Origin: Deltaproteobacteria bacterium
Lineage (GTDB): Bacteria; Desulfobacterota; Desulfuromonadia; Geobacterales; Pseudopelobacteraceae
Length of the DNA: 64,000 nt
Direction: 5' to 3'
NCBI GenBank assembly: GCA_021850095.1
Contig: JAJZRX010000009.1
Coordinates: forward strand, 26 to 64,025
Of the stretch, positions 4,952-64,000 are shown piece by piece. Position 1 is the stretch's first letter; every line of letters begins with the position of its first letter. The position numbers and the translations under genes were made by a program. Under the pieces are notes generated by a model. That model was given only the letters and a program-made list of their open reading frames with translations. It did no database searches and was not told the DNA's origin.

Positions 4952-6961
<2,010 letters not shown>

Positions 6962-49305: not shown

Positions 49306-49508
49306 TACTTGTATTTTTCTAGAATTTGGTCAGTACTTGTTGTTTGCATGTGAGAAATGGTTTGTGAAAGCATCTTTGTGGTAGAGACGGTTTTATCTCC
49401 GTTTGGTGAAATAGTTTCCGTAGTGGATATGGTCGCAACGGTAGGTTGGCAACCTGCCGCCATCAGTAAACCACACGCAAGTGCAACAAACAAAATCATC
49501 TTTTTCAT
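49305..49508 (-). CDS. Small Thr/Ser-rich lipoprotein
   Basis: MKKMILFVALACGLLMAAGC lipobox. AAGGAGGG lies 6 nt upstream of the ATG. Confidence 0.6.
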   Translation of the reverse strand: MKKMILFVALACGLLMAAGCQPTVATISTTETISPNGDKTVSTTKMLSQTISHMQTTSTDQILEKYK

Positions 49509-49591
49509 TTCATTCCCTCCTTTGTTTGATATGGCACCTTTTCTGAAGGTGCTGATATATAACCAATAAGTTACAAAGTTGACACTTATGA

Positions 49592-50104: not shown

Positions 50105-50159
50105 TCTTTTGCACCTGTCCTTTGTATGTTTCGCTACCGAATTACTGACATTTAAAGTA

Positions 50160-50790
50160 AGCATCCCCCACCAGAGGTGGGGGCTTTCAAAATCGTGAAC
50201 CGCTCGAAGCGGTTTTTTCAAAAGATTATCCGACCACCGGTGGTGGTCATGCTTCGGTTAATAGCGTCAATTGATCCAAGCGTTTGTCTTCGTCTTCCTG
50301 TCCTCTGATGTAGTTGGCAATCATTTCTTCATCTGCGCCAACTGTTGATACATAGTACCCTCGTGCCCAAAAGTGCATGCCGGAATAGTTCTTCTTCTGA
50401 CCAAGGTACATTCTGGCAATATAGATAGCACTTTTACCCTTGATGAAACCGATCACCTGTGCGACGGAGTATTTTGGTGGGATCGATATCAATATGTGAA
50501 TATGATCTGGTTGAAGATGACCTTCCAGTATCTTGCACTCTTTCTGCCTCGCAAGACTGTGTAAAAGGTCGCCAAGATCTTTCCGAATACGACCAAACAG
50601 AACCTTGCGCCGACATTTGGGGATCCATACAATATGATACTTGCAATCCCATTTCGTGTGACATAAACTTTGAGCGTCGTCCATTGAAGCCTCCATTTCG
50701 TGTACTTTGAGCGGTTCACGTTAGGGAGGCTTCTACATATTTCAGGAACTGTCAAACTATTGGGGTCCCCCACCAGAGGTGGGGGATTAC
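50160..50790 (-). mobile_element. IS200-type insertion sequence (IS200/IS605 family, tnpA only)
   Basis: A Y1 transposase gene flanked by identical 19-nt hairpins CCCCCACCAGAGGTGGGGG at 50165-50183 and 50767-50785. The outer boundaries are approximate. Confidence 0.7.
50247..50696 (-). CDS. tnpA: IS200/IS605-family transposase TnpA (Y1 HUH)
   Basis: KYHIVWIPKCRRKVL, HUH motif PDHIHILISIPP, and catalytic Tyr region RGYYVSTVG. Confidence 0.9.
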   Translation of the reverse strand: MEASMDDAQSLCHTKWDCKYHIVWIPKCRRKVLFGRIRKDLGDLLHSLARQKECKILEGHLQPDHIHILISIPPKYSVAQVIGFIKGKSAIYIARMYLGQKKNYSGMHFWARGYYVSTVGADEEMIANYIRGQEDEDKRLDQLTLLTEA

Positions 50791-50982
50791 CTAAAAGAAT
50801 TCAAGAGAATTTACATTCACGATAACGTTTTCTGAGACATTCTGAACTAGGAAGAATGTGTCTATGCTAGCAACCAATACATGTGTATGTATACAAAAAA
50901 ACTATAATAAAGTCCATAAAATTTCAGCATCTTCAGTTAGGTTTTTGCACGACGTTTTTGTGTTTCAACTGCCTGATTTTGT

Positions 50983-51243
50983 TTAACTTGCCTTGTTTTT
51001 GGTTTGCTGCTTCTGAACGGCTGCTGCTTCATTTGCAATCTGATTGCGTAATTCGCGTACCCTTGAGACCCTGACTGGTTCTTGGTGCTGCTCCCGGCAA
51101 TAGATGGCCAGTAGCAGATAGGTGATGAGACCACCAAGTATTTGAACCATGAGACCGTATTCGCTTCTGGCAATCAGGTGATACACCTTTAAGTGGCATT
51201 TCCACCAGCCAAAGAAGGGGGCACAATTCCAATTACTGATACA
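50983..51243 (-). pseudogene. C-terminal remnant of an IS4-family DDE transposase
   Basis: NWNCAPFFGWWKCHLKVYHLIARSEYGLMVQILGGLITYLLLAIY resembles the RWxIExFFKWxKxHL...Q tail of IS4-type transposases. The N-terminal ~80% is absent. Confidence 0.55.
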
Positions 51244-51270
51244 GTTTGTGGTGTGTAGTCGACATTATTC

Positions 51271-53178
51271 TCAGAAAAAGTAGTTCCACGATAGCAGCGA
51301 TTCCAATTTATCATGTTGAGATGTACTTGTATAACCGGTTTTAATTTTTAAGCTGTTGTTGCGGTTAAGTGAAATACTGACAGCTGATTCACCTTGAATG
51401 CTTGTTCGCTTCTCGCCCAAAGGAAACCAGAGGTATTTGCCGTTGACGCTGAACTGGACACGATTGCCGATATGTCTGTTTAAACCTAGAGATAAACCGG
51501 TACCGAGAGCATACCAGTCGTTTAGTCCCTGTCCTAGGTTGCCTTCGACTTCTGCCATTGCGTAAGTCAGTCCGAATAAGCTTGATTCATAAGTAATCCC
51601 TCCACCCGTATTAGCCTGAAATACAAGGACATCGTTACCGTTCTTTTTCTGAACTTGAGTCATTCCAGCTCTGATTTTCCAAGATGTGCGTTTGAATACC
51701 TGATCGTATGCTGACAGGGATACAATATCCAACAGATCGAGCCGTTCGAGTCGAACTAGCTCCTGATAGGGATAATAGCGAATAGCCATGTCCATAAATT
51801 GTATCTGGGCACCATCAAGGTAGCCTGCCCCGGGGTCGGTCATTCCGTGATATGCCGGACGCATGCCTAGTTCACTAAATAATTTGCCGCGGTCAAAGCC
51901 ACTTCCAAAACTTATGCGTACGGATGAATGACCCTGTTCTGGTCGCATTGGTTTTGGAATTTGGTAGGGATTGTTTATTCGGTTTGCCAATTGACTACGC
52001 TTTTTAAGCAGTTGCATGAATCTATTACGATACTCATCCTGGTTGATTTGCTGCTTATTGTATGAGTGCTGCAGCAGTTCAATGGCAAGGTCGAGCACCA
52101 ATGTTATGCGATCAGGGGGCAAACCTAAAGAAATATTGTCAGGTTTGTCTTTCCCGGATGCTAATCGTTGCCCAAGTGTTATTTCCTCTCTATTTATTAA
52201 CTGGGTAATAGCTTGAATCTTTTGTCTCTGGGATGGGCGGTAAGCAGTCGAGGAAATTAATCCTGATGAGCTAATAAGAAAAATGGTATCCAGGGGAACA
52301 ACCCAAGGCGCAGTCTTATCCGTTAAATGGACAGTTGGACGGGCGGCTTCAAGAAGGAATAGCAAGTTGTAAGAGCAATTTTCATCAAAGAAATAATAGT
52401 CCGAATATATATCCCGTAATTCCCAAATATGGAGTGCCATGCGCCGTACTTCATCTGTTGTCAGATTAAGTTTGTATTCCCATATGTCACGATGCTCCAG
52501 GTTACTGTATTCCCGGATTTTAGCGTACTGTGGCAAGATTGAAAAATAGCCTTTGTACAATCCGAAAACTCCTTTCCATGCATACACTATCCCGTTATTT
52601 TCATCGGTTTGGGCGGCATAATTGACCGCATAGCTCAATAGCTCACTCTCATATTCATTGCCTATTCGAATGAAGGTGTGACCAAACATGGAAGCAGGGC
52701 TGTTCATATATGCTGATGGGAACATAACGCTTGCTGATTTTGGGTTTACTTTGTTCAGGTAATTGAACTGTTCGGTGCATTCAGGGGTTGGCAGAAATTT
52801 TTTATCAATTCCAATACTATCTTTAAGCCACTCGTATCGAGCTGGGAATCGGCAGATGGGGTGCTTGTCTCCTAACTCGGCAGGTTTAAATAGTCCTTGA
52901 ATAGTTGCAAATAGCTCCGCTTCGGGATTACTCTCTCCGTTACTTGCCAGAAAAAAAGCAGGGTCGTCAATTTTACTATAACTACCAGTAATATCCGGGT
53001 AATGAAGGAGAACGCGCCATTCCCGTTTTCGGTCAAGCTGAAGGGCTCGAGCTGATTCAATCAACGCATCAGAATAACTGTTTTGCTGCTGACCCAGTGA
53101 TACAGAGGACAGTAGGAAAATAAAAAGGCATACCGGCAGGAACCGGTATGCCTTTGTTGCTCTTGGTAGTAATCCCAT
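51271..53178 (-). CDS. DUF4105 (Lnb-N-terminal-like) domain protein with a beta-barrel-like C-terminal half
   Basis: Signal peptide, DUF4105-type block (MFGHTFIRIG...YFFDENCSYNLL), and a C-terminus ending SWNYFF (OMP beta-signal-like). Confidence 0.7.
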   Translation of the reverse strand: MGLLPRATKAYRFLPVCLFIFLLSSVSLGQQQNSYSDALIESARALQLDRKREWRVLLHYPDITGSYSKIDDPAFFLASNGESNPEAELFATIQGLFKPAELGDKHPICRFPARYEWLKDSIGIDKKFLPTPECTEQFNYLNKVNPKSASVMFPSAYMNSPASMFGHTFIRIGNEYESELLSYAVNYAAQTDENNGIVYAWKGVFGLYKGYFSILPQYAKIREYSNLEHRDIWEYKLNLTTDEVRRMALHIWELRDIYSDYYFFDENCSYNLLFLLEAARPTVHLTDKTAPWVVPLDTIFLISSSGLISSTAYRPSQRQKIQAITQLINREEITLGQRLASGKDKPDNISLGLPPDRITLVLDLAIELLQHSYNKQQINQDEYRNRFMQLLKKRSQLANRINNPYQIPKPMRPEQGHSSVRISFGSGFDRGKLFSELGMRPAYHGMTDPGAGYLDGAQIQFMDMAIRYYPYQELVRLERLDLLDIVSLSAYDQVFKRTSWKIRAGMTQVQKKNGNDVLVFQANTGGGITYESSLFGLTYAMAEVEGNLGQGLNDWYALGTGLSLGLNRHIGNRVQFSVNGKYLWFPLGEKRTSIQGESAVSISLNRNNSLKIKTGYTSTSQHDKLESLLSWNYFF

Positions 53179-53645
53179 TATCTGATAGCAGTAACCGCAA
53201 CGACATTATTCATCATCTCGGCATAGGCGATTTTGTCATGGGTGAATATGTTGTCAAATGAATTGTGAAGTTTTAAAGCGAATTCACCGCGTTCGTTAGT
53301 TGGTATCTGCAATAGTTCATTGAAAGTATTCAAGGATTCACCATTTCCCACAGCAATATCCTTGGCCAGATTATCCATGTTGGCAACTACGAACTCTTTT
53401 AACCGTTCATTGTTTGCGAAATGAGCCGGTTCGCTGCAGTCCATCGTTCCTGAAGTAATTGCAAAAGTTTGCGAAGCCATGCCATTTGTTGTTGCTTGGA
53501 GAGCCTGTGAAAGGGAAGAACCATCAGCTTTGTTTTTCCAGAGTACCGTACCCAGACCGCACCCGGTATTCTGTCTGGCTGATGCGGCAAATGCTGTGCT
53601 GGCAAACATTAACAATGCTAGAGTAAAAACAGCTTGTTTTTTCAT
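53178..53645 (-). CDS. DUF3015-family secreted protein
   Basis: MKKQAVFTLALLMFASTAFA signal and a GCGLGT motif. GGAGG lies 5 nt upstream of ATG 53645. Its stop overlaps the DUF4105 start (TAATG). Confidence 0.7.
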   Translation of the reverse strand: MKKQAVFTLALLMFASTAFAASARQNTGCGLGTVLWKNKADGSSLSQALQATTNGMASQTFAITSGTMDCSEPAHFANNERLKEFVVANMDNLAKDIAVGNGESLNTFNELLQIPTNERGEFALKLHNSFDNIFTHDKIAYAEMMNNVVAVTAIR

Positions 53646-53699
53646 AAAAACCTCCATTTATTAAGTGATTTATTTTAAGGATGATAAAGGGATGGATAT

Positions 53700-54000
53700 T
53701 TAAAGTCAAGACAGATAGTTGTCTCCTTACGCAAACGGGAATTCTCAACTTCAAGCTCGGTAGCAGGACGCCTTGATCTACTGCCATTTTTGGATTCTTG
53801 ATGTAATATACCCAGTTTTTCAGCTTCATGGGCGGAACTGATAACCGATGGCCAGCCTCAACTATGCTCAAACCGGATTTTTTAACCAACGTTACTACTT
53901 CCTGCTTGAATTATTTCTGTATATTTCTGTGTAGTATGTGTCGCGGGATCTCCATGCGAACTCCTTCTGTGGAGTGTCAACTTACCACATTAGGTGTCCA
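53700..54000 (-). pseudogene. IS3-family left end with a frameshifted OrfA remnant
   Basis: Terminal TGGACACCTAATGTGG at 54000 (minus strand). Fragments FKQEVVTLVKKSGLSIVEAGHRLSVPPMKLKNWV and ELEVENSRLRKE lie in different frames. No OrfB. Confidence 0.65.
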
Positions 54001-54736
54001 CTTTTTTCAGCTTACGGCGGCCCCTGTCAGGGATGAACTGGCCGAACTGCGGAAATCCAACTCGTTCGCTTTTTTTGTTGATGATAATCTGGTGGCCGAC
54101 CGGAAATATGCCCTGGAGCTGTTTGCCGGCATGAAGGGAATGGATTTCAAGTGGCTCTCCCATTCGCCGATCGATTTTGCCGGTGACCGGGAGCTGATCA
54201 AGGCCGCCGGCCAGGCCGGTTGTGTCGGGATGTTCGTCGGCTTTGAATCACTCAATCAGGATTCGCTGGCCGCCATGGGCAAGGTTACCAACCGGGCCAC
54301 CTCCTATCTGGAGGATGCCCAGACCTTCCGCGACAACGGCATCGGTATTCTGGGCTCTTTTGTTCTGGGGTATGACGGCGACACGCCGGCCATCTTCGAA
54401 CAGCTGCTGCGCTTCTGCGAGCAGGCCCGTATCGAAGCCGCCATCTTTCCGCTCCTGACCCCCTATCCCGGAACGGCCGTCCGCCGCCGCCTGGAGGCCG
54501 AGGGGCGTATCATCTCCAACGACTGGCGCGACTATGATATGGAACATGTCAATTTCAAACCGGTCGGCATGAGTATCAACGAGCTGCAGCAGGGCTATGA
54601 CTGGCTCAACAACTCCTTTTACTCCTTTACCTCCATGTATCGCCGTCTCTTCAAGCTGCACCGCTCTGTGCAGGTCTTCGGGCCCATGAACCTTGGCTTC
54701 CGCGCCGCCTTGCGCCGCAAGAGCAACGCCGCATGA
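54001..54736 (+). pseudogene. 5'-truncated B12-binding radical-SAM gene (C-terminal ~240 codons only)
   Basis: Homology starts at APVRDELAELRKSNSFAFFVDDNLV, immediately after the IS3 end. The B12 domain and CxxxCxxC are missing. The upstream part of track ORF 53828-54736 is antisense to the IS remnant. Confidence 0.7.
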
Positions 54737-56055
54737 GCGTTTCTCCACGGCTGCTGTTGATCTACCCCGCCACCCACACGCTGGGGTGGGTCAAACGTTT
54801 CCAGCTCCCCTCCCTTGCGCTCAATCAGGTAGCAGCCGCCACTCCCCGGGAGTGGCAGGTGACGATTGTGGATGAAGTTCAGGAAAAGCTCTCTTTTGAC
54901 GGTCACTACGATCTGGTGGGCATCACGGCCATGACTCACCAGGCGCTGCGCGCTTATCAGATAGCGGATCGTTTTCGTGAAAGGGGCATACCGGTTGTGC
55001 TGGGGGGTATTCATCCCACGGTATTGCCGGACGAGGCGGCCGCCCATGCCGATGCGGTCGTGATTGGCGAAGCCGAGCCGGTCTGGGCCGGATTGTTGGG
55101 TGACCTGCGGAATGGGAAACTGGAGAAGTTTTACCGTTCCGTTCCAACCGGCGACAAGCTGGAGATTCCTTGGGCCCGCCGCGAACTGCTGGCGGGGCGT
55201 AAATATCTGACGACCCAGGCACTGCAGGCCAGTCGCGGCTGCCCCTACGACTGCCCGTTTTGCACCGTGACCCCGCACTTCGGACGCACCTTCCGCTACC
55301 GCGATCCGGAAGACATCCTGGCCGAACTGCGCAGCTATCAGGGCAAACTGACGGTCTTCCTGGACGATAACATTCTGGGAGACCCGCTCAAGGCCAGACC
55401 GATCCTGACCGGAATGGTTGGAATGGGGCTGCGCTGGGGTGGTCAGGCCAACCTGCGCTTTGCGGAGGATCCCGAAATGGTCAGGCTGCTGGCCGCTTCC
55501 GGCTGCATCGGCATCTTCGTCGGCCTGGAATCGGCCGACGGCCTGCACGCCAATCATCCCAAAACCTCCGGCAGTTCGGCCCAAGCTGATCTGATCAAGC
55601 GTATCCGCGATACCGGCGTGGTGGTGGAGGCTTCGGTCATCTTCGGTTTTGACGATCACGACCAGGGCATCTTCGAACGGACGGTCCGCTATCTCGAAAA
55701 GTGCGCACCCAGTCTGCCGACCTTTCATATTCTGACCCCCTATCCCGGAACAGCCCTGTTCGATCAGTTTCAGCGCGAGGGGCGTATGCTGCACACCGAT
55801 TGGAGCCGCTATGATCACGGCCAGGTCGTTTACCGGCCCCGTTTGATGTCACCGGAACAGCTTTACCGGGGCTGGGTGGATGCCCGTCGGGAAGCGTACA
55901 GCTGGTCGTCGATCGGATCGCGGATGATGCGGAGTCCCGGAAAAACGGTCAACCTGCTGTACAACATCCTGAGGCGCGGCGGCATCTATGGCCGTGAATA
56001 TGATCAGGCCGGATTTTATGATCCATCCGCACCATCTTCAGGAGTGTTGCAATGA
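54733..56055 (+). CDS. B12-binding-domain radical-SAM protein
   Basis: N-terminal B12-like domain (DLVGITAMT...VVLGGIHPT) and SRGCPYDCPFC (CX3CX2C). ATGA overlap with the upstream gene. Confidence 0.85.
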   Translation: MSVSPRLLLIYPATHTLGWVKRFQLPSLALNQVAAATPREWQVTIVDEVQEKLSFDGHYDLVGITAMTHQALRAYQIADRFRERGIPVVLGGIHPTVLPDEAAAHADAVVIGEAEPVWAGLLGDLRNGKLEKFYRSVPTGDKLEIPWARRELLAGRKYLTTQALQASRGCPYDCPFCTVTPHFGRTFRYRDPEDILAELRSYQGKLTVFLDDNILGDPLKARPILTGMVGMGLRWGGQANLRFAEDPEMVRLLAASGCIGIFVGLESADGLHANHPKTSGSSAQADLIKRIRDTGVVVEASVIFGFDDHDQGIFERTVRYLEKCAPSLPTFHILTPYPGTALFDQFQREGRMLHTDWSRYDHGQVVYRPRLMSPEQLYRGWVDARREAYSWSSIGSRMMRSPGKTVNLLYNILRRGGIYGREYDQAGFYDPSAPSSGVLQ

Positions 56056-56894
56056 TCTGCTGGATGTTTCCCGGCCAGCCGTTGCGTCATGACCAGCCCT
56101 TTCCCGCCAGTCAAGAGGGAGAAGAGCTTGTTGCGCTGTGCCGCACTGCGACCGGTTTTGACCCGTCCGCCTGGCAGGAAGCCGGCGCCGCGAACAGTGA
56201 GCATGTTCGTCTGCAGTTGTACGGCACGGCCTACAGTCTTTGCCGCGCACGCCAGTTGCGCCTGGACGGTCAAAAGCCGGAGATGATTCTTGAGCACAGC
56301 CTGGGTATCTATGCCGCCCTGGCGGCCTGCGGCAGTATTTCGGAACGGGATGCCCTGGAAATGACCGGACGGGTCGGCGCGACCCTGGCTCGTATGGCGC
56401 ACAGTAATCGCTATGCCTTGGGGTGCGTTATCGGGCTGGGCTCCGCTCCGGTCGAAGCCGCCGCCGCCAATCACCGCGTGCATGTGGCTAATTACAACAC
56501 GTCCCGTCATTTCCTGCTGGCCGGGAAACGTTCACGGATCATGGCCGCCATGGAGGAGTGCGCCGCTGCGGGGGCCTTCTCGCTGTCGGTCTTCGACTGT
56601 GACGCTCCCCTGCATACGCCGCTCCTGGCGGAAGTTTCGGGTGCTCTGGAAGAAGTTTTTGGCGACTATCGTTACGCCGAACCAGCCATTCCCCTGCTGA
56701 ATCACATTGACCAGCAGCCGCTGACCGCCGGGCGGATAGCGGCCTTCCTGCTGGAGGAACTGTTGAAGCCGGTCTGGTGGCAGCGCAGTTATGCCGCTGC
56801 CCGCGGGTGGGGCGCGGCGACGTTTCTGGAAGTGGGCGCCGGCGATGCGCTCAAAAAATTCAACCGCTGGATCGACAGCGAGAGCCGGACATGA
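56052..56894 (+). CDS. FabD-like acyltransferase (malonyl-CoA:ACP transacylase fold)
   Basis: WMFPGQ start motif and EHSLGIY nucleophile elbow. ATGA overlaps on both sides. Confidence 0.7.
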   Translation: MICWMFPGQPLRHDQPFPASQEGEELVALCRTATGFDPSAWQEAGAANSEHVRLQLYGTAYSLCRARQLRLDGQKPEMILEHSLGIYAALAACGSISERDALEMTGRVGATLARMAHSNRYALGCVIGLGSAPVEAAAANHRVHVANYNTSRHFLLAGKRSRIMAAMEECAAAGAFSLSVFDCDAPLHTPLLAEVSGALEEVFGDYRYAEPAIPLLNHIDQQPLTAGRIAAFLLEELLKPVWWQRSYAAARGWGAATFLEVGAGDALKKFNRWIDSESRT

Positions 56895-57313
56895 ACTATC
56901 ATGAAACCAGTATCAAGGTGCGCTTTAACGAAGTGGATGCCTACCGGGTGGCCTGGCACGGCCATTATGTGGCCTGGATGGAAATCGGCCGCAGCGGGCT
57001 GGCCGGCCGCTTCGGTCTGGACGCGTTTCAGCTGGCCGAACTGGGCTATCTGGGGCCGGTCATCAATCTGGAGATCAAATACCTGCGGCCGGCCCGCTTC
57101 AATGACGAGCTGACGGTCCGTACCCGCATAGTTCCAAGCGATACGGCCACGCTGCTGTTCGAGAGCGTTATCGTTGACAACAGCGGGGCAAAGCTGGCCG
57201 TCGGGCTGACGACCCACGCCCTGACCGATCTGGCCGGGGTGCTGCAGTTTCAACTTCCTCCGGCGGTGGCCGAACGACTGGCCGCCATGCGCGCCTGGCT
57301 GGAAGAAGCATGA
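56891..57313 (+). CDS. Hotdog-fold (4HBT/YbgC-like) thioesterase
   Basis: VRFNEVDAYRVAWHGHYVAWME catalytic Asp region. Start MNYHETS overlaps the upstream stop. Confidence 0.75.
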   Translation: MNYHETSIKVRFNEVDAYRVAWHGHYVAWMEIGRSGLAGRFGLDAFQLAELGYLGPVINLEIKYLRPARFNDELTVRTRIVPSDTATLLFESVIVDNSGAKLAVGLTTHALTDLAGVLQFQLPPAVAERLAAMRAWLEEA

Positions 57314-58689
57314 AAATCCTGCTGATATCCGCCAATCGTGAGCGCTCCCCTTATCCGGTTTTCCCGATCGGCCTGGCCTACCTGGCCGGCCCGCTGCAGG
57401 CCGCCGGACATGAGCTCGCGGTTCTGGATCTCTGTTTTGAGCAGCAGCCGGAAACCTCCCTGCGTGAAAAACTGCAATCGTTTCGGCCGGCTCTGGCAGT
57501 CATCTCTCTGCGTAATATCGACAACGTCACCTGGCCCAACAGCCGCTCTTACCTGGAAGGGGTCAGATCGATTGTCAGCAGTTGTCGCGGATTTGCTACG
57601 ACCGTTGTGGGGGGCTCCGGATTTTCGCTGATGCCCTTGGAGGTGTTGACGTTTCTGGAGGCCGATTACGGCGTGGTGGGGGAGGGGGAAGAGTTGCTGC
57701 CGAGATTGGCGCAGCTGATCGAACAGGGAGAGAATCCCGCCGGTCTGCCGGGACTGCTGTCGCGGGGCTGCGCCACATTTCTGCCCCCCGTGCCGGTGGA
57801 GCGGATCGGCACCCCTGAACGGTCCCTTTTTGAGGTGAGCCGCTATCAGCGTGAAGGGGGCATGGCCAATGTCCAGACCAAGCGCGGCTGCCCCTTTACC
57901 TGCGTGTACTGCACCTATCCGCTGCTGGAAGGGCGCCGGATGCGGCTGCGTCCGGTGCCGGAAATTATCGCCGAACTCCATGCGCTGGTTGATGAGTCTG
58001 CCGTCAGCTACATCTATTTTGTGGATGATATTTTCAATTACCCGCCCGAATTCGCCGAGACGCTCTGCCGGGCGATGATTGCCGATAAACTGGAGGTTAA
58101 CTGGTCGGCTTTTATCAACCCGGCTTTCATATCGCCGGGACTGCTGGATATCATGCTGGCGGCCGGCTGCGACGCGGTCGAATACGGCACCGAATCCGGT
58201 TCGCCGGCCATGCTGAAAAATCTGGGCAAGTCCTTCAGTGTTGAGGATGTCCGTTCGGCTTCACTGCTTTGCCGTCAGCGCCAGGTGGATTTCGCCCATT
58301 ACATTCTTTTCGGCGGCCCGGGCGAGACGCGCGAAACCGTGCTGGAGAGTTTTGAACTGATGGACGAGCTGCAGCCGACGGCGGTGATCGCCATGACCGG
58401 CATCCGCATCTTCCCCGGTACATCCCTGTACCGGACGGCGCTGGCGGAAGGGGTCGTCACTGCTGACAGCAACCTGTTGGAGCCGGTTTTTTATATCTCG
58501 GCCCCTGTCAGGGATGAACTGGCCGAACTGGTGACTTCGCAGGCGGTTTCCCGCACAAACTGGGTCGTGCCGGGTCTGGAGGTCAACATCAGCGATGCTA
58601 TGCTGGATGCGCTGCGCATGTTTCCGGTCAAGGGGCCGCTCTGGAAGCTGATCAAGCGGATGGGGCGCAGCCGGGTCAGGCCGATCTGA
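57310..58689 (+). CDS. B12-binding-domain radical-SAM protein
   Basis: MKILLISANRE...B12-like domain and KRGCPFTCVYC (CX3CX2C). Confidence 0.85.
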   Translation: MKILLISANRERSPYPVFPIGLAYLAGPLQAAGHELAVLDLCFEQQPETSLREKLQSFRPALAVISLRNIDNVTWPNSRSYLEGVRSIVSSCRGFATTVVGGSGFSLMPLEVLTFLEADYGVVGEGEELLPRLAQLIEQGENPAGLPGLLSRGCATFLPPVPVERIGTPERSLFEVSRYQREGGMANVQTKRGCPFTCVYCTYPLLEGRRMRLRPVPEIIAELHALVDESAVSYIYFVDDIFNYPPEFAETLCRAMIADKLEVNWSAFINPAFISPGLLDIMLAAGCDAVEYGTESGSPAMLKNLGKSFSVEDVRSASLLCRQRQVDFAHYILFGGPGETRETVLESFELMDELQPTAVIAMTGIRIFPGTSLYRTALAEGVVTADSNLLEPVFYISAPVRDELAELVTSQAVSRTNWVVPGLEVNISDAMLDALRMFPVKGPLWKLIKRMGRSRVRPI

Positions 58690-58769
58690 ATCCTGTTTCA
58701 TCCTTGTCTCTGGACATATCCTTCCTAAAACGCTAAAATCCCCCTCCAATTCTTTATTTCGGAGACACT

Positions 58770-59510
58770 GTGGAATTTAAGGATACTATCATCGTAGTTA
58801 CCGGCGGCACGCGCGGCATCGGGCGGGCCGTTTCGCTGGACTTCGCCGCCGCAGGGGGCAAGGTTTTTGCCGCCTACCGCTCCAATCAGGTTGCGGCCGA
58901 CGAAACCGTGGCCCTGGCCGCAGGACTGGCCGGCAGCATCACCGTTGTTCAGGCCGATGTCAGCAGTTCCGAAGGAGCCCAGCTGCTGATCAGCCGGGCT
59001 GCGGAAGCAACCGGCCAGATCGACGTGCTGGTGAACAACGCCGGCATCATCCGCGACGGCTGGCTGGCGATGATGGCTGATGACGACTGGGATGCCGTTA
59101 TCCGCACCAACCTGTATCCGCTTTTCCACTGCTGCAAGTGGGGGGTGCGCAAGATGATGGCCCAGCGCAGCGGCGCGATTGTCACCATCTCCTCCATTTC
59201 CGCCGTCAGCGGAACCGCCGGACAGTCCAATTACGCCGCCTCCAAGGGGGCGGCCATCAGCTTTACCAAATCGCTGGCCCGCGAGGTCGGTCCAATGGGC
59301 ATCCGGGTTAATGCCGTTGTGGCCGGACTGATCGACACCGACATGACCGCCGGGCTCAAACAGGAGATCGTGGCCGGGATTTTGAAGGGGGCCGCCCTGG
59401 GACGCATCGGCCGGCCGGATGAAGTGGCCGACGCGGTGCTGTTTCTGGCATCGCGGAACGCTTCCTATATTACCGGCCAGTCACTGGTTGTGGATGGCGG
59501 TATCCTATGA
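58770..59510 (+). CDS. fabG: 3-oxoacyl-ACP reductase (SDR)
   Basis: VTGGTRGIGRA, NNAGI and YAASKGA motifs. Confidence 0.9.
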   Translation: MEFKDTIIVVTGGTRGIGRAVSLDFAAAGGKVFAAYRSNQVAADETVALAAGLAGSITVVQADVSSSEGAQLLISRAAEATGQIDVLVNNAGIIRDGWLAMMADDDWDAVIRTNLYPLFHCCKWGVRKMMAQRSGAIVTISSISAVSGTAGQSNYAASKGAAISFTKSLAREVGPMGIRVNAVVAGLIDTDMTAGLKQEIVAGILKGAALGRIGRPDEVADAVLFLASRNASYITGQSLVVDGGIL

Positions 59511-60715
59511 CCAAAAAACAGAGGGTTGTCATAACCGGTTTAGGCGTTTTCTGCGGGGCCGGCAAAAATGCGGCCGAGTTCAGTCAGAACCTGACCGAAG
59601 GCAGAAGCGGCATTACCGAGCTGGATCTCTTCGATGTTTCCGCTTTTCCATCCCGTATCGGCTGTCAGATCAAGGGTTACGACCCGCTGGATTATTTCGA
59701 CCGCCGTTCGGCCCGCAAGCTTTCCCGGGCCGATCAGTTCGGCATCATCGCCGCCGGCGAGGCGCTGGAGAACAGCGCTATCAGCGGGCTATATTCCCCC
59801 TATGATATCGGCGTTTCCCTGGGGGGGGGCGCGGCCGGCATGTTCCAGTCCGAACAGTGGCTGAAAGCCTATCTGGCCGGCGAAGCCGCGTCGCCGCTAC
59901 TGCTGCGGGGGGTGCTGCCGGACAAGACCGCCACGGAAATCGCCCTGCGCTTCGGCCTGGCCGGCTATCAGGGAACGATCACGACGGCCTGCTCATCCTC
60001 GGCCAGCGCCATCGGCTGGGGAGCCGAGCTGGTGGCAACCGGGCAGCAGAAGGCCGTGGTTGCCGGCGGTTCCGATACGCTTTCGCTTTTGACCTTTGGC
60101 GGCTTCAATTCGCTGAAAGTGGTCGATCCGGAACCCTGTTCCCCCTTCAGCCTGGGGCGGCAGGGGATCTCGCTGGGCGAAGGGGCCGCCATTTTAGTGC
60201 TGGAAAACGAGCAGGATGCCCTGGCGCGGGGCGCACGGATTTACGGCGCCGTGCTCGGTTATGCCCTGGCCGGGGAAGCCTTCCACATGACCGCTCCCGA
60301 ACCAAGCGGCTCGACCGCAGCACGGGTTATGCGCGAGGCGATTGATCAAGCCGGAATCGCAGCCGAGCTGGTCGGCTGGGTCAATGCCCATGGCACCGGC
60401 ACGCCGCTCAACGATGTGGTCGAATCCAACGCCATGAAACTGGTGTTCGGCGAGCGTGTCGGCCAGGTGCCGCTGATCTCCACCAAAGCCATGACCGGCC
60501 ACTGCCTGGGAGCAGCCGGTTCCATTGAGGCTCTGGCCACAATTATCGCCCTCAATCGGCAGATCATCCCCCAGACCCTCAATTTCAGGGGGCATGATCC
60601 GGAATGTGATCTGGATTACTGTCACCTGGGCAGTCGCCCGAGTGAAGCCCGGGTGGCCATGTCCAATTCGTTTGCCTTTGGCGGAAACATAACTTCACTG
60701 GTGCTGGGACTATGA
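59507..60715 (+). CDS. fabF: Beta-ketoacyl-ACP synthase (FabF-type, complete Cys/His/His triad)
   Basis: TACSSSASAI, NAHGTGTPLND and TGHCLGAAG. Confidence 0.9.
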   Translation: MTKKQRVVITGLGVFCGAGKNAAEFSQNLTEGRSGITELDLFDVSAFPSRIGCQIKGYDPLDYFDRRSARKLSRADQFGIIAAGEALENSAISGLYSPYDIGVSLGGGAAGMFQSEQWLKAYLAGEAASPLLLRGVLPDKTATEIALRFGLAGYQGTITTACSSSASAIGWGAELVATGQQKAVVAGGSDTLSLLTFGGFNSLKVVDPEPCSPFSLGRQGISLGEGAAILVLENEQDALARGARIYGAVLGYALAGEAFHMTAPEPSGSTAARVMREAIDQAGIAAELVGWVNAHGTGTPLNDVVESNAMKLVFGERVGQVPLISTKAMTGHCLGAAGSIEALATIIALNRQIIPQTLNFRGHDPECDLDYCHLGSRPSEARVAMSNSFAFGGNITSLVLGL

Positions 60716-61761
60716 ATATTTCAACTAATGACATCGTCGTGACCGGCTTCTCGGCCATCAGCGCCGCCGGCAGCGGTGTGGCGGCGATCCGGGAGCTGCT
60801 GGATTCCGGTCACTCCGCCCTGACGGCGGTTCCTGAAGACGTTCCCGGCGGCAGTGGCCAGCTGTGGGGCAAGGCCCATTCTTTCAAGGCGACCGATTTC
60901 ATCGCTCCGCTGAAAGCACGCAAGATGGATCGCTGCAGCCAGTTTGCCGTGGCGGCCGCCGGCCTGGCCCTGAAGGATGCCGCCATTGACCTGAAAACGG
61001 TGGCGCCCGAACGGATCGGTATCGCCCTGGGGTGCGGCTTCGGCGGTGTCGCCAATTCGGCCGAATTTCTGGCCGGCTATTTCAGCGGCGGTGTCAACGG
61101 ACTGACCCCCATGCTCTTTCCCAATACGGTTTCCAATGCGCCGGCCAGCAACGCTTCAATCGAACATGGACTGAAAGGGCCCAACGTCACCCAGGTTCAG
61201 CGTTTCTGCTCGGCCGAATCGGCCTTCACCATGGCCTGCCGTTTTATCGCCGAAGGTCGGGCCGACATCATGTTGACCGGCGGAGCCGACGATCTGATGC
61301 CGCTTTTGCTGGCCGGCTTTGCTGCTACCGGACAGCTGCGGCGCTATGCCTCCAGTTTCGGTGAGGGGAGCGGAGTCCTGGTGCTGGAAAGCGGACGCCA
61401 CGCTTCAGCGCGCTCTGCGGCGATCAAGGGCACGGTTCAAGGCATCAGCACGGTCGGTCTGTTGCCGGCCGGGAGCGAACAGGAAGGACTCGACCGGCTT
61501 CTGTCCGCTTCAACGGCTGGCGAGCTGGTTTCAATCTCCGGCACCACGTCCGCTTTTCCCGCTCTGCTGCAGCGAACAGCGGCTGCCGAATCATTTGATC
61601 TCTCAACGGTAACCGGCCGTTCTCTGGCAATGGGCGGCGTCTCCATGGCGGTGCTACTGGCATCCCTGGGGGCCGGTCAGAGCGGTCTTCACCTGGCGTC
61701 ATCCCCGGAAGGGCCCTATTATGCAATCCGTTTCACCGGAGGCACTCCTGTTCAACCCTGA
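60712..61761 (+). CDS. KS-like partner subunit (chain-length-factor-like, lacks both catalytic His motifs)
   Basis: Thiolase-fold N-terminal half (RFCSAESAF). In the C-terminal half, SISGTTSAF and TGRSLAMGG replace HGTGT and GHxxGAAG. 349 aa. Confidence 0.7.
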   Translation: MNISTNDIVVTGFSAISAAGSGVAAIRELLDSGHSALTAVPEDVPGGSGQLWGKAHSFKATDFIAPLKARKMDRCSQFAVAAAGLALKDAAIDLKTVAPERIGIALGCGFGGVANSAEFLAGYFSGGVNGLTPMLFPNTVSNAPASNASIEHGLKGPNVTQVQRFCSAESAFTMACRFIAEGRADIMLTGGADDLMPLLLAGFAATGQLRRYASSFGEGSGVLVLESGRHASARSAAIKGTVQGISTVGLLPAGSEQEGLDRLLSASTAGELVSISGTTSAFPALLQRTAAAESFDLSTVTGRSLAMGGVSMAVLLASLGAGQSGLHLASSPEGPYYAIRFTGGTPVQP

Positions 61762-62131
61762 TCCAGCAGCATACCTGCCGCACCGCTACCCTTTTCTTCA
61801 ACTTGACCGGATCATTACCCTGGAACCGGGGGTGCGGGCTGTTGCCCTGAAGAACCTGCCTGCCGGTCGTGCTTTTCCGCAGATTCTCCTGCTTGAGTGC
61901 GTTGCCCAGTTGGCCGGAACCCTGACCATTTCCGAAGAGGGGCAGGGGGGCTTTCTGGCGGCCATTGATCGGGCCGAATTTTCCGAAGTCCCGCAACCAG
62001 GCGATGTACTGACGGTTTCCGCTGCTCTGGTCAAGTCGTTCGGGCGGCTGTTCATGGTGGAGGGAGAGGTGGCCTGTCAGGGGCGCAGACTGCTGACCGC
62101 GCAGCTTACCCTGGGGGTCGGCCAATTATGA
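61721..62131 (+). CDS. FabZ/FabA-like hotdog dehydratase
   Basis: LPHRYPFLQLDRI motif. 136 aa. Confidence 0.8.
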   Translation: MQSVSPEALLFNPDPAAYLPHRYPFLQLDRIITLEPGVRAVALKNLPAGRAFPQILLLECVAQLAGTLTISEEGQGGFLAAIDRAEFSEVPQPGDVLTVSAALVKSFGRLFMVEGEVACQGRRLLTAQLTLGVGQL

Positions 62132-62766
62132 AATCTGAAAAACTGTTCTTCTCCATGTCTCTCTGTCTCTGCGTTTCAATTGCCTTTGTGCTGGGAAGTC
62201 TATCTTCCGCCCAGGCCCGCCCGATTCCGCCCCTGGAGGGCCTGGAGGCGCTGCGCAAGGGCTTTGCGGGCATCTCGGATTTCAGCGCCGAGATCACCCA
62301 GGAAAAACGCCTTTCGCTGATGAAGCGCACTATGACCATGAAGGGTACGGTACGCTTCAGAAAACCGGACCAGTTTTTCCTGGCCATCAATCCCCCCTAC
62401 GCCAGCCGGATGGTGCTGAAGGATGCCACCATCGAGATGGCCGGCGGCCCGGAAGGCAAACGCAACCGGATGGTACTTCCTCCCGAACAGGGCCTGGGGC
62501 GCTGGTTTTCAAAGCTGGCGTCGCCGGTGACACAGCTTCCCGAGGGGGTTGCCATCCAGGCCGATCTGACCAATTCGCTCTATACGCTGACAATCACTCC
62601 TCAAGGACAGGGGCAGGTCAGGGAACTGGCCATAGCCTTTCTTGCCGACGGCACGATCCGGCGCCTGACGATTCTGGAACGAAACGGCGACAAGGCCAGC
62701 ATGATCTTTAAAAAACTGCGCCGCAATACCGGTCTGACCGATAGTGACTTCAGGCTGGAACCGTGA
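62128..62766 (+). CDS. LolA-like outer-membrane lipoprotein carrier protein
   Basis: Signal peptide plus F-x-Q...KGTVRFRKPDQF pattern typical of the LolA fold. Confidence 0.7.
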   Translation: MKSEKLFFSMSLCLCVSIAFVLGSLSSAQARPIPPLEGLEALRKGFAGISDFSAEITQEKRLSLMKRTMTMKGTVRFRKPDQFFLAINPPYASRMVLKDATIEMAGGPEGKRNRMVLPPEQGLGRWFSKLASPVTQLPEGVAIQADLTNSLYTLTITPQGQGQVRELAIAFLADGTIRRLTILERNGDKASMIFKKLRRNTGLTDSDFRLEP

Positions 62767-62810
62767 AACGTAACTGATCAGTACAACTAACCCTTACAGA
62801 CAGGATCGCT

Positions 62811-63515
62811 GTGTTCAAACAAATGCTGAAACACTTTTTAAAAATCATCGCTCCGCTGCTGCTCCTGACCGCCTGCAGTACCGCCCGCCCAATCCTGGAT
62901 TACAACCCGGAAGCCACCCTTGAGACCCTTTCGGCGGCCGTATCCATGTCGGTGGTCACGGCCGATAACGGCATGTCCGGCAGCGGTTTCATGGTCTACC
63001 GCCGTCCCGACCAGCTGCATCTGGTGCTGTTGTCCCCCTTCGGCACAACCCTGATTGAAATCTTCTCCCGGGGCGAGCAGGTCACGCTGCTGTATCCGGG
63101 CAATGCCACCGCTTATGTCGGCACAATTGCCGATCTGCCGGAAAAGGGGGGGCTGCAGGGCTGGCGGCTGATGCGTTGGGTCATGGATGCCGCTCCGGCA
63201 GCTTCCAGCGCAATGAACGGCACGCTTGAACGCCCCGGTGTGCAGGGGCTGCCTGAAAAGGTCACCTATGAAAACGGGCTGGTGGTTTCCAAAAGTACCG
63301 CTGACGGCCAACAGGTCTATTATTCGCGCTATTCCGTTGCCGGCGGGGTTCCCTTTGCGGCCGAGCTGGAGCTGCGCAACGCCCGGGAAGACCGCATCCG
63401 GATCGTTCTGGATGAACCGGAGATCAACTCTCCGCTGGAAGAAGCCGTCTTTCAACCGCGCCTGGAAGGGATCAGGATCCTGCCGCTGTCTCTTTTGCGG
63501 GGTATCACTCCCTGA
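62811..63515 (+). CDS. Lipoprotein (LolB-like / APE-cluster-type lipoprotein suspected)
   Basis: Lipobox LLLTAC. Positioned between the LolA-like and MMPL genes. Confidence 0.5.
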   Translation: MFKQMLKHFLKIIAPLLLLTACSTARPILDYNPEATLETLSAAVSMSVVTADNGMSGSGFMVYRRPDQLHLVLLSPFGTTLIEIFSRGEQVTLLYPGNATAYVGTIADLPEKGGLQGWRLMRWVMDAAPAASSAMNGTLERPGVQGLPEKVTYENGLVVSKSTADGQQVYYSRYSVAGGVPFAAELELRNAREDRIRIVLDEPEINSPLEEAVFQPRLEGIRILPLSLLRGITP

Positions 63516-64000
63516 TGCAGTTCCTTTTATTCAAGAAAATCACAAGCTTTGTAAATAGTCTCACCCACTCTCATCTGGAGTGGATCCATCGCCTGACGAC
63601 AACCCGGCCGCTGCTGGTGCTGATCGGTTTTGCTTTCGCGCTGCTGCTGTCGGTCGCTTCGATTTTATCAACCCGCTTTGAAAGTGACATCTTCCAGCTG
63701 TTTCCCAGCCGCCAACCGGCCTTGAAGCTGATGCTGGATTCCATGGAATGGACCGGCAGCGCCAAGGAAGCTTTCTTTCTGCTGGAAGGGGACAAAAAAC
63801 TGCTGCCCCAGGAAGCCGGTCGGCTGGCCGAACGTCTGAAACTGGCCCAGGTGGATGGTCAGCCGGCCTTTAAACGCATCACCTGGCAGGTGTACGATGA
63901 AAACCAGGCCGCTTCCTTTCGCGATTTTATCGCCTTTGCCGCGGCCCGTCCGCAGCTTTTTCTTTCCAGTTCCGACGTTCCCGCACTGGCCGACCGCTTT
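63515..64000 (+). CDS. MMPL/RND-type exporter, N-terminal part (runs off the window)
   Basis: Manual translation is open to the window end: MQFLLFKKITS...RPLLVLIGFAFALLLSVASILSTRFESDIFQLFP. The start overlaps the upstream stop (TGATG). Confidence 0.6.
   Translation, partial: MQFLLFKKITSFVNSLTHSHLEWIHRLTTTRPLLVLIGFAFALLLSVASILSTRFESDIFQLFPSRQPALKLMLDSMEWTGSAKEAFFLLEGDKKLLPQEAGRLAERLKLAQVDGQPAFKRITWQVYDENQAASFRDFIAFAAARPQLFLSSSDVPALADRF

Follow-up and report, generated by a model that had tools for sequence, protein, structure and literature searches.

A TIGR04072 radical-SAM gene cluster conserved across Geobacterales, with its 5′ third replaced by an IS200-bearing foreign segment

The gene roles of aryl-polyene (APE) clusters and the GalNAc-phosphate-glycerol anchor of their products have been described (PMC8253772; bioRxiv 10.1101/2020.12.19.423268), and in E. 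coli one of the two ACPs is dispensable for APE biosynthesis, with AcpP proposed as a possible carrier (PMC8253772). Clusters of another type were reported by Rattray et al. (2009) in Geobacter, Pelobacter and Desulfotalea (PMC2649909), and in Desulfobacterota they are routinely flagged as 'ladderane' BGCs of unknown function (PMC9902471). For anammox bacteria, a FabF2/FabFmut heterodimer that primes by decarboxylation has been described (bioRxiv 10.64898/2026.05.19.726425). One B12 radical-SAM family, TIGR04072, is curated in NCBIfam as the equivalog "lipid biosynthesis B12-binding/radical SAM protein" (short name rSAM_ladder_B12).

A 64-kb stretch of a Geobacterales contig (64,000 nt, hereafter the window) was analyzed; it contains a gene cluster that is conserved across Geobacterales, of which the 3′ two-thirds are present. 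The cluster kind is not new: it is widespread in Geobacter-like bacteria, TIGR04072 was already curated, and the cluster type was reported in 2009 (PMC2649909). As the original prediction stated, 12 genes lie in series on the + strand and are mostly coupled by start-stop overlaps, all eight of which (54733, 56052, 56891, 57310, 59507, 60712, 62128 and 63515) were seen in the ORF listing of the window. The domain calls were all confirmed by Pfam and NCBIfam, that of the MMPL exporter only after extension with an identical longer contig, L001.

The first gene is a remnant of a B12 radical-SAM gene, rSa (54036..54736), which by tblastn comprises only the C-terminal 233 codons and matches residues 175–428 of a 428-aa orthologue at 78%. 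The ORF as read covers 53828-54736, its open frame running 5′ into foreign DNA with an ATG at 53828 or 53954. The remnant is 95% identical in amino acids to the rSa of an intact relative, L008, with a dN/dS of 0.07; it has neither the B12-binding domain nor the native CxxxCxxC (CPFDCEFC at residue 168 of the L008 protein), and as a C-terminal remnant with DUF4070 it scores 25.6 against Pfam Radical_SAM, under the cutoff of 29.5. The gene is indeed decapitated, its first ~195 codons having been lost to foreign DNA.

The two other radical-SAM enzymes, both with Pfam B12-binding and Radical_SAM domains, were classified with HMMs, as had been suggested. rSd (57310..58689; 459 aa, KRGCPFTCVYC) is the signature enzyme of the cluster and a member of TIGR04072, which it matched over its full length with 401.5 bits (cutoff 360); it is 95–50% identical to proteins in Geobacterales, Syntrophales and Holophagales. 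rSb (54733..56055; 440 aa, SRGCPYDCPFC) stayed under every NCBIfam cutoff, with BchE, ApyD and PhpK as top matches, and orthologues were found in only 19 of 40 relatives; it is a predicted accessory tailoring enzyme.

The FAS-like genes comprise a FabD/MdcH-like malonyl-CoA:ACP transacylase (56052..56894; Pfam Acyl_transf_1, EHSLG Ser motif and conserved His; NCBIfam MdcH 138 bits and FabD 98 bits, neither reaching cutoff), an ApeK-like hotdog thioesterase of the YbgC/4HBT type (56891..57313; Pfam 4HBT_2/4HBT, its ATG backed by orthologues; 28% identity to E. coli ApeK, E = 3e-17), and an ApeQ-like, FabG-type 3-oxoacyl-ACP reductase or KR (58770..59510; Pfam adh_short_C2 211.9 bits, TIGR01830 262 bits under the cutoff of 298, 34% identity to ApeQ). 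The ketosynthase (KS; 59507..60715) has both Pfam KS domains and, in alignment, the full Cys/His/His triad that had been claimed for it; it scored 387 bits with the FabF model TIGR03150 (cutoff 494). Its chain-length-factor-like partner (60712..61761; 349 aa) has the N-terminal Pfam KS domain only, and the alignment bore out that both catalytic His are gone, the HGTGT and GH motifs being replaced.

The next gene (61721..62131) had been called a FabZ-like dehydratase. The FabA/FabZ-like hotdog family was confirmed with Pfam, and the protein retains LPHRYPFL and the Glu helix, but the dehydratase part of the claim is not supported: compared with solved FabZ structures, an 11–13-residue deletion removes the catalytic-His loop, 'PFFxGHFPGxP'. 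The deletion is kept in all 12 aligned Geobacterales orthologues. As no ApeI-like partner is encoded either, dehydration may need the housekeeping FabZ or may not occur.

The operon closes with export genes: a LolA-like periplasmic carrier with a signal peptide (62128..62766; Pfam LolA 50 bits, NCBIfam LolA2_flexi and LolA under cutoff), a LolB-like lipoprotein with the lipobox LTAC (62811..63515; Pfam LolB, PF03550, 42 bits), and the first 162 codons of an MMPL/RND (HpnN-like) exporter (63515..64000). By itself this 162-aa fragment had no Pfam match; the 841-aa protein read from L001, which ends just past the window, matched Pfam MMPL, and HpnN-like with 200 bits, under cutoff. Extending the contig had been proposed as a way to an ACP and tailoring genes, and L001 gave only the remainder of the MMPL gene followed by convergent purE, purD and purH. 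Therefore, neither an ACP nor aryl-priming enzymes are supplied from downstream.

The likeness to APE clusters raises the question of whether this is a genuine APE cluster (APE, flexirubin or xanthomonadin type) with its aryl-priming genes located elsewhere. A thioesterase, KR, KS with partner, hotdog protein (weakly similar to ApeP), LolA-like carrier, LolB-like lipoprotein and MMPL exporter are held in common, and the relatives add an ACP 45% identical to ApeE and a GT2 and an acyltransferase that match the two halves of ApeJ. The place of the lipoprotein in the gene order corresponds to that of the DUF3261 'LolB-like' ApeN in the APE cluster (PMC8253772). The likeness of the export proteins is at family level only, as BLAST matched neither the LolA-like protein with ApeL nor the LolB-like one with ApeN, and MMPL shares only 23% identity with ApeM. 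However, no ApeH-type ligase, ammonia-lyase, ApeI, ApeR-type second KS, ApeC, ApeG or ApeB was found at E ≤ 0.01 in the window, downstream or in the fetched loci, intact relatives included. The KS gave higher scores with FabF (256–294 bits; PDB 294) than with APE KSs (172–181 bits; PDB 6qsp 172), and Iga11 in the PDB gave 226 bits; its partner showed no similarity to ApeC, and the flexirubin NCBIfam models FlxB and LolA2 stayed far under their cutoffs. Further, the cluster has two to four B12 radical-SAM enzymes and a SPASM radical-SAM enzyme as conserved members, and we know of no APE cluster with either. These results make a genuine APE locus highly unlikely, in agreement with the prediction that this is not a textbook one, and, as predicted, the locus joins 'ladderane-type' B12 radical-SAM enzymes to a chassis and export set that resemble those of APE clusters.

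A ladderane (cyclobutane lipid) pathway as proposed for anammox bacteria could likewise be read from rSd lying above the 'rSAM_ladder_B12' cutoff and from a KS with a catalytically dead partner, as in anammox Cluster I. To our knowledge, however, ladderanes have been reported from anammox Planctomycetota only, and no experiment ties such genes to ladderanes, even in anammox bacteria. A phytoene-dehydrogenase-like gene was absent from the window and from the Pfam tables of the relatives, whose ACP is ApeE-like. The large Kuenenia cluster also has a polysaccharide-deacetylase-like gene, a glycosyltransferase and radical-SAM genes, yet Desulfotalea psychrophila has syntenic clusters and contained no ladderanes (PMC2649909), and the catalytic His missing from the hotdog protein is kept by amxFabZ (PMC10139942). 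Ladderane synthesis is thus extremely improbable here.

The cluster was then compared with its intact relatives, in a survey of 47 loci with counts on the 40 Geobacterales relatives that have enough upstream DNA. The intact order is (Cas6-like), polysaccharide deacetylase, GT2, SPASM radical-SAM, lipid-A-type acyltransferase and ACP; then one to three accessory B12 radical-SAMs, malonyl transacylase, thioesterase and the TIGR04072 radical-SAM; and finally KR, KS, KS-like partner, His-less hotdog, LolA-like carrier, LolB-like lipoprotein and MMPL. The SPASM radical-SAM, acyltransferase, ACP, transacylase and thioesterase genes occur in 40/40 relatives and the deacetylase and GT2 genes in 39/40, the SPASM enzyme being among the most conserved proteins (72–93% in nearly all Geobacterales loci). 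The Syntrophobacteraceae and Desulfobacteraceae loci L082, L083, L086 and L088 share the components in a different order, which argues for functional coupling. Relatives were found in at least 598 species genomes, and the cluster has looser forms in Syntrophales, Desulfobacterales, Acidobacteriota and others.

In the window, the native 5′ third is replaced by a low-GC foreign block (47840..54035), with a GC content of 0.30–0.47 vs. 0.56–0.64 on either flank. Nucleotide homology with L008 (88%) ends at 47818 and restarts at 54035 in the aligned junctions, and the genes neighboring the block are 83–95% identical to those of L008, while the xenologous Cas6-like gene (47816-48715, + strand) is only 46% identical to its L008 counterpart. 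By Pfam, the block encodes on the − strand a PDZ lipoprotein (49592-50221), an IS200 TnpA (50247-50696), an Lnb_N/DUF7840 protein (51271-53178) and a DUF3015 protein (53178-53657). No deacetylase, GT2, SPASM radical-SAM, acyltransferase or ACP gene was detected by tblastn in the whole 64 kb. A 6.2-kb IS200-bearing segment has therefore replaced these five genes and ~195 codons of rSa, which accounts for the decapitation as well as for the missing ACP; the absence of an ACP is a deletion here and not a trait of the pathway.

Since the data are metagenomic and GC shifts abruptly at both borders, an assembly chimera had to be considered. Against it, five contigs from several assemblies (e.g. ERZ27237442 and ERZ27237050) carry a junction-specific 260-aa protein together with the complete series frdAB / Cas6-like / IS200 / Lnb_N / DUF3015 / remnant, L001 and the window share 100% identity along 11.2 kb spanning the right junction, and the left junction sits in a terminator / RBS / start region conserved among the relatives. 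An artifact of this kind is scarcely credible, and the replacement is taken as biological.

We know of no product for any member of the cluster family, so every chemical step for the intact form is one that we infer. Most likely, the product is an acyl or polyene chain that is tailored by radical-SAM enzymes, joined to a glycolipid anchor and sent to the outer membrane. Malonate would be loaded by the transacylase onto the dedicated ApeE-like ACP, and the KS/KS-like heterodimer would prime by decarboxylation, by analogy with the anammox FabF2/FabFmut pair, and then elongate the chain. The β-carbon would be processed by the KR and hotdog protein; the cluster encodes no enoyl reductase, which makes an unsaturated or hydroxylated chain probable. 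Cobalamin radical-SAM enzymes may then alter unactivated chain carbons. C-methylation is the most likely change, because the closest characterized families of the cluster enzymes are methylases (HpnR, 232 bits, for rSc; PhpK, TsrM and BzaD for the others); B12 radical-SAM enzymes also catalyze non-methylation chemistry, and cyclization or rearrangement is possible. GT2 and the deacetylase would make an amino-sugar lipid anchor to which the acyltransferase attaches the chain, and MMPL, the LolA-like carrier and the LolB-like lipoprotein would move the product to the outer membrane.

The operon in the window had been predicted to make a radical-SAM-tailored acyl/polyene lipid for the outer membrane. 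With the ACP and the anchor-building genes replaced, this copy is most likely non-productive, and the account as a whole, a conserved lipid cluster crippled here by replacement of its 5′ third, is on balance probable. It is conceivable, though rather unlikely, that the remaining genes still work, the KS pair, KR, thioesterase and two B12 radical-SAM enzymes making a modified fatty acid via housekeeping AcpP and general acyltransferases for export by the LolA-like, LolB-like and MMPL proteins. The 11 genes other than the rSa remnant are all intact with low dN/dS, and the partial ACP dispensability and possible AcpP carrier role in E. coli APE biosynthesis (PMC8253772) point the same way. So does a Sigma-70-like match (58711..58739, + strand; TGGACA-17-TAAAAT, 10/12, a consensus match only) in the sole sizeable intergenic gap, 5′ of fabG, from which fabG through MMPL might be transcribed internally; unrelated genes part the two cluster halves at this point in L004 and L005, so the fabG-to-MMPL half is probably its own transcription unit. 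However, the relatives invariably retain the ACP, acyltransferase and SPASM enzyme, and no promoter-like site was found 5′ of the rSa remnant, where the adjacent foreign genes lie on the opposite strand. The lost genes may also have a second copy elsewhere in the genome, beyond the window. All remaining genes, the rSa remnant included, have dN/dS values of 0.05–0.20; at a dS of 0.26–0.56 these mostly reflect history before the event, and they suggest that the event is too recent for visible decay.

The same-strand gene series predicted at the right end of the window was recovered in the ORF list together with all eight of its start-stop overlaps, and Pfam and NCBIfam searches agreed with every domain assigned to it: a C-terminal radical-SAM remnant (54036–54736, +), two B12-binding radical-SAM proteins, a FabD/MdcH-type acyltransferase, a hotdog thioesterase (4HBT), a FabG-type reductase (KR; 58770–59510, +), a full-length ketosynthase (KS), a KS-like partner with the N-terminal domain only (60712–61761, +), a FabA/FabZ-like hotdog protein (61721–62131, +), a LolA-like protein and a LolB-like lipoprotein (PF03550). 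The full Cys/His/His triad was visible in the KS alignment, and the partner was indeed devoid of both His motifs, HGTGT being changed to STAGE and GH to GR. An ENA contig (L001) that is 100% identical to window positions 52811–64000 extended the final gene to an 841-aa MMPL/RND protein, 3′ of which purE, purD and purH lie in convergent orientation. Extending the contig, as the original prediction had proposed, revealed no ACP, ligase or ammonia-lyase downstream of the operon. The LolA, LolB and MMPL export set, the thioesterase and the KR were all present, as judged by Pfam and by comparison with aryl-polyene (APE) proteins.

The signature B12 radical-SAM enzyme of the series (rSd; 57310–58689, +) scored 401.5 bits against NCBIfam TIGR04072, above the equivalog cutoff of 360, with residues 2–447 of 459 aligned. 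This family is named 'lipid biosynthesis B12-binding/radical SAM protein' (short name rSAM_ladder_B12), and the runner-up NCBIfam matches of rSd were BzaD and TsrM. The nearest relatives belonged to Geobacteraceae, namely Oryzomonas sagensis (78%) and Geobacter sp. FeAm09 (76%), plus one metagenomic protein (95%). Scanning one genome per species yielded at least 598 genomes with a relative, and ten distant 50%-cluster representatives included Nitrospinota and Paenibacillus. Clusters of this type have been catalogued before and occur widely. No paper was retrieved when the literature was searched for 'TIGR04072'. The search for related loci used a 12-sequence rSd alignment, a 48-sequence alignment of distant relatives being too diverse. 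No anammox genome was among the best 80 loci from this search, and rSd is therefore assigned as an orthologue of the anammox enzyme by its NCBIfam equivalog score and not by direct comparison.

In the relatives, the 5′ part of the locus reads frdAB, a Cas6-like gene, polysaccharide deacetylase (DUF3473), GT2 glycosyltransferase, SPASM radical-SAM, a Lip_A_acyltrans acyltransferase and ACP; the middle part consists of accessory B12 radical-SAM a (rSa), optional b and c (rSb, rSc), transacylase, thioesterase and rSd; and the 3′ part of KR, KS, KS-like partner, hotdog, LolA, LolB-like and MMPL. Among the 47 Geobacterales-type loci surveyed, 40 had at least 6.5 kb of upstream DNA, and all 40 of these encoded the SPASM enzyme, acyltransferase, ACP, transacylase and thioesterase, while deacetylase and GT2 were found in 39 of the 40. 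The window's KS and degenerate KS, KR, hotdog, transacylase and thioesterase likewise adjoin the TIGR04072 enzyme, and this FAS-II-like set was kept together in 25–26 of the 30 relatives whose downstream DNA extended to 6 kb, inserted genes splitting the remainder. Loci of Syntrophobacteraceae and Desulfobacteraceae carried rSd, the KS pair, ACP, thioesterase, hotdog, GT2 and deacetylase in another order, and this rearrangement of the same components supports their functional coupling.

Compared with the intact clusters of O. sagensis (L004, VZRA01000003.1), Geobacter sp. FeAm09 (L005, CP042466.1) and the closest intact relative (L008, metagenomic), the remaining window genes matched in kind and order, with protein identities of 70–95% for most genes and 53–90% for FabD, LolA and the LolB-like protein; the left flank (frdAB, Cas6-like) and the start-stop coupling were also common to both. 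However, where the intact relatives have the deacetylase, GT2, SPASM radical-SAM, acyltransferase, ACP and the 5′ 195 codons of rSa, the window carries a foreign low-GC block. Homology to L008 (88% at the nucleotide level) ended at window position 47818 and restarted at 54035, and the intervening 6.2 kb had a GC content of 0.30–0.47 vs. 0.56–0.64 outside. A Cas6-like gene, a PDZ lipoprotein, an IS200 transposase, an Lnb_N/DUF7840 protein and a DUF3015 protein make up this block. The 'decapitated' gene matched residues 175–428 of rSa by tblastn, and the native CPFDCEFC cluster motif of rSa, which is encoded 5′ of the breakpoint, has been lost from the window. Tblastn with the Oryzomonas proteins gave no match to the deacetylase, GT2, SPASM enzyme, acyltransferase or ACP in the whole 64 kb, and a regex search likewise detected no ACP anywhere in the window. 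An assembly chimera was ruled out, since the entire arrangement, together with a junction-specific 260-aa protein, recurred on five contigs from several assemblies, which argues for a real allele.

Therefore, the absence of an ACP, taken earlier as one argument against a textbook APE locus, proved to be a deletion: the ACP is present in 40/40 relatives and was lost here by replacement of the upstream block, which makes the window copy an incomplete member of the TIGR04072-centred cluster family. The dN/dS values against L008 and L006 were 0.05–0.20 for each remaining gene (0.07 for the remnant) with no decay, indicating that the truncation is recent relative to the divergence from these two loci; such values date the event and cannot decide present function. 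In short, the window holds a recently truncated and probably defective copy of a type of cluster that is known but not characterised.

Of the two halves left in the window, the 5′ one has no promoter-like site on the plus strand upstream of the remnant, and the foreign genes next to the remnant point away from it. In the gap before fabG, a consensus match to a sigma-70-like site (10/12) was located at 58711–58739. Taken with the split of L004 and L005 at this same point, the match weakly suggests that the fabG-to-MMPL half may still be transcribed. Complementation from elsewhere in the genome, beyond the window, is possible.

Several variations were observed among the intact loci. In L004 (11398–15808) and L005 (11388–17251), 5–7 kb of unrelated genes, including an MFS transporter, an aldo-keto reductase and a PNPOx-like gene, separate rSd from fabG, suggesting that the two halves of the cluster are able to act as separate transcription units; both this MFS/AKR insertion and the rSc of these two loci are missing from the window. 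The number of accessory B12 radical-SAM paralogues differed between close species (L004–L088), with rSa in 37, rSb in 19 and rSc in 8 of the 40 loci, which suggests species-specific tailoring of a single scaffold. None of the accessory enzymes reached a named NCBIfam family, their best partial matches being methylases or BchE-like proteins: HpnR, HpnJ and PhpK for rSa, and BchE, ApyD and PhpK for rSb, while the best match of rSc was HpnR (232 bits). The HpnR-like rSc is sometimes placed before the deacetylase or after MMPL. L006, whose rSd is 84% identical, lacks rSb and carries, between its acyltransferase and ACP genes, two additional small ORFs (159 and 195 aa; 6123–7186) without a match in Pfam. 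The SPASM radical-SAM (L008 3548–4924 and orthologues) was among the most conserved cluster proteins, with 72–93% identity in nearly all Geobacterales loci and 58% in L019, and its best named matches were only NirJ/AhbD-type enzymes at about 78 bits.

The core enzymes were then compared with housekeeping fatty acid synthesis, and all FAS II equivalog cutoffs were missed (FabF 387 < 494, FabG 262 < 298, FabD 98 < 261 and FabZ 66.5 < 155). The KS is FabF-like but falls below the FabF equivalog cutoff, and against PDB entries it scored 294 bits with B. subtilis FabF, 226 with ishigamide Iga11 and 172 with the APE KS 6qsp. The two-chain KS entry 9s5h gave 267 bits against the KS and 72–85 bits against the partner; it may be the anammox heterodimer, and it was kept out of the evidence because the corresponding preprint gives no PDB codes. 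As for the predicted FabZ-like dehydratase, the Glu of the central helix was retained, but an 11–13-residue gap against solved FabZ structures removes the 'PFFxGHFPGxP' loop together with the catalytic His (for the FabZ mechanism and the catalytic His48 of amxFabZ, see PMC10139942). The deletion was found in 12/12 aligned Geobacterales orthologues, so it is a family trait and not decay. E. coli ApeP likewise lacks the His, whereas ApeI bears the GHF motif; an ApeI-like, His-bearing hotdog partner was not found in any locus. Neither the window nor the relatives' clusters encode an enoyl reductase. GT2 resembled PpgS and AglJ, two polyprenyl-phosphate sugar transferases, and had a weaker likeness to an ArnC-type transferase.

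The E. coli CFT073 apeA-R cluster (c1186–c1204; L089) was compared protein by protein. Both it and the present family have a type II FAS/PKS-like core with a dedicated ACP, KS and partner, KR, hotdog and thioesterase; a GT2 and a lysophospholipid/lipid-A-type acyltransferase for sugar-phosphate lipid attachment; and a LolA-like, LolB-like and MMPL export set, the likeness of the LolA- and LolB-like proteins being at family level only. The relatives' ACP was 45% identical to ApeE, GT2 matched the N-terminal half of ApeJ (30%) and the acyltransferase its C-terminal half (26%), and the thioesterase, KR and KS were 28%, 34% and 33% identical to ApeK, ApeQ and ApeO, respectively, with a weak match of the hotdog to ApeP. 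In APE lipids, an aryl polyene is joined by an ester bond to a GalNAc-phosphate-glycerolipid (bioRxiv 10.1101/2020.12.19.423268), and ApeM, ApeL and ApeN are thought to move APE lipids outward (PMC8253772). The likeness of the ACP, of GT2 and the acyltransferase, and of the export set therefore indicates an APE-like logic of carrier, anchor and export.

Beyond this logic the resemblance breaks down, in agreement with the view that this is not a textbook APE locus: the family departs from APE clusters at the defining points of aryl priming, of the KS set (ApeO/ApeC/ApeR) and of the dehydratase pair (ApeI/ApeP). ApeH, ApeI, ApeC, ApeG, ApeB and ApeA had no counterpart in this family, and no ApeH-type synthetase or ammonia-lyase was matched in the window, the downstream extension or 85 related loci. 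In pairwise scoring the KS matched FabF better than ApeO, the partner showed no similarity to ApeC, and a third KS (ApeR) was not detected. Whereas APE clusters use an ApeI/ApeP dehydratase pair, an ApeR, an ApeC-type CLF, an ApeG and the SAM methyltransferase ApeB, this family has the ApeP-like His-less hotdog only and no equivalents of the others; it has in addition a malonyl transacylase, a polysaccharide deacetylase, the SPASM radical-SAM and two to four B12 radical-SAMs. Literature searches combining Geobacter with aryl polyenes, or radical-SAM with CLF, LolA or MMPL, found nothing relevant. In the related highly reducing type II PKS of ishigamide, a KS/CLF heterodimer (Iga11/Iga12) works with KR and DH, without ER, and the acyl chain that it builds on a separate ACP is a polyene; its CLF differs from the partner (46 bits only). 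The Iga11/Iga12 system is not known to have radical-SAM, lipid-anchor or export genes.

The putative ladderane clusters of anammox bacteria, Kuenenia Cluster I (kustE3603–3608) and kuste3335–3352, share with this family the FAS-II-like genes, a cobalamin radical-SAM of the same NCBIfam equivalog, a KS with an inactive KS partner (KS/CLF in anammox) and a dedicated ACP; the larger Kuenenia cluster also has a deacetylase-like gene, a glycosyltransferase and further radical-SAMs. The anammox FabF2/FabFmut pair is a KS/CLF that decarboxylates malonyl-ACP (bioRxiv 10.64898/2026.05.19.726425). In contrast to the anammox clusters, this family has an ApeE-like ACP and the LolA/LolB-like/MMPL export set, and the phytoene-dehydrogenase-like desaturase gene (amine-oxidase/PDH domain), which adjoins the B12 radical-SAM gene in anammox Cluster I, was found neither in the window ORFs scanned nor in the relatives' Pfam tables. 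Further, amxFabZ keeps its catalytic His, while the hotdog here has lost the His loop and kept the Glu. The Geobacterales lineage is not known as a ladderane maker. Similar clusters of FAS-II and radical-SAM genes were noted in Desulfotalea psychrophila, Geobacter species and Pelobacter carbinolicus (Rattray et al., 2009; PMC2649909), no ladderanes were found in D. psychrophila (PMC2649909), and none have been reported outside anammox bacteria (PMC2649909, PMC9902471). The function of the antiSMASH 'ladderane' clusters of Desulfobacterota and other phyla is considered unknown (PMC9902471). How ladderanes themselves are made has yet to be solved, and ladderanes and jawsamycin are the sole acyl lipids proposed as radical-SAM-modified in a 2026 review (PMC13459092).

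The general reading of the original prediction, namely an envelope lipid, tailored by radical-SAM enzymes and so far uncharacterised, that fits neither the textbook APE nor the ladderane type, thus stood. Tentatively, and at somewhat less than even chance, the intact cluster makes an undescribed class of outer-membrane glycolipid, with a polyketide-like chain remodelled by cobalamin radical-SAMs including the TIGR04072 enzyme. In the most likely mechanism, malonyl would be loaded onto the ApeE-like ACP, the KS/KS-like pair would prime and elongate the chain, and ketoreduction, possibly with dehydration, would follow without enoyl reduction. The chain would then be modified by two to four cobalamin radical-SAMs and the SPASM radical-SAM, C-methylation being the default guess, moved onto an amino-sugar lipid built by GT2 and the deacetylase, and exported by MMPL, the LolA-like carrier and the LolB-like lipoprotein. 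In this genome, the genes of two of these steps, malonyl loading and transfer to the sugar lipid, are lost.

If the glycolipid reading is true, the function of the TIGR04072 enzyme would be open to experiment in Geobacterales that can be grown, such as Oryzomonas, Trichlorobacter thiogenes and Geobacter sp. FeAm09, and some of these may turn out genetically tractable; the truncated allele would be a natural loss-of-function variant of the pathway. The family matters as hundreds of anaerobe species carry the cluster with no known product and as its signature radical-SAM family is common to the unsolved ladderane pathway. The window locus itself is of moderate to low interest, lower than the family as a whole, and adds little on the product, being one more copy, and a broken one. 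It is useful in showing that the 'missing ACP' results from a deletion, not from the design of the pathway, and in pointing to the family's APE-like anchor and export logic and to a conserved His-less dehydratase-like protein.

Within and beside the foreign block, some minor features were observed. The Cas6-like gene (47816–48715, +; AF_1859_N and CRISPR_Cas6 domains, Cys-rich N-terminus) has counterparts directly 5′ of the cluster in L004, L005, L006, L008, L010, L011, L013, L014, L042, L045 and L048, and no CRISPR context was seen around it. It diverges much faster than its neighbours (27–58% vs. 70–95% identity); the window gene, only 46% identical to that of L008, is xenologous and low in GC, yet agrees with the native start over its first ~30 nt. 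The IS200-type TnpA gene (50247–50696, −) is flanked by near-identical palindromic hairpins, TCCCCCACCAGAGGTGGGGG, at 50163–50186 and 50766–50788, as expected for an IS200/IS605 element, while an IS3-like HTH remnant considered at 53524–53889 (−) was dropped because it had no Pfam support. The Lnb_N/DUF7843/DUF7840 protein (635 aa) and the DUF3015 protein (159 aa), encoded at 51271–53657 (−) with overlapping stop and start, are envelope-related and were both brought in with the block. Finally, the foreign N-terminus of the chimeric ORF encodes CIFLCSMC (53918–53941, +), a CxxxCxxC pattern that gives the remnant the superficial look of a radical-SAM with a cluster motif. Its distance to the conserved LRKSNSF block exceeds that of the native CPFDCEFC by 11 residues; the pattern lies within a TGT-rich low-GC stretch and is probably due to chance.
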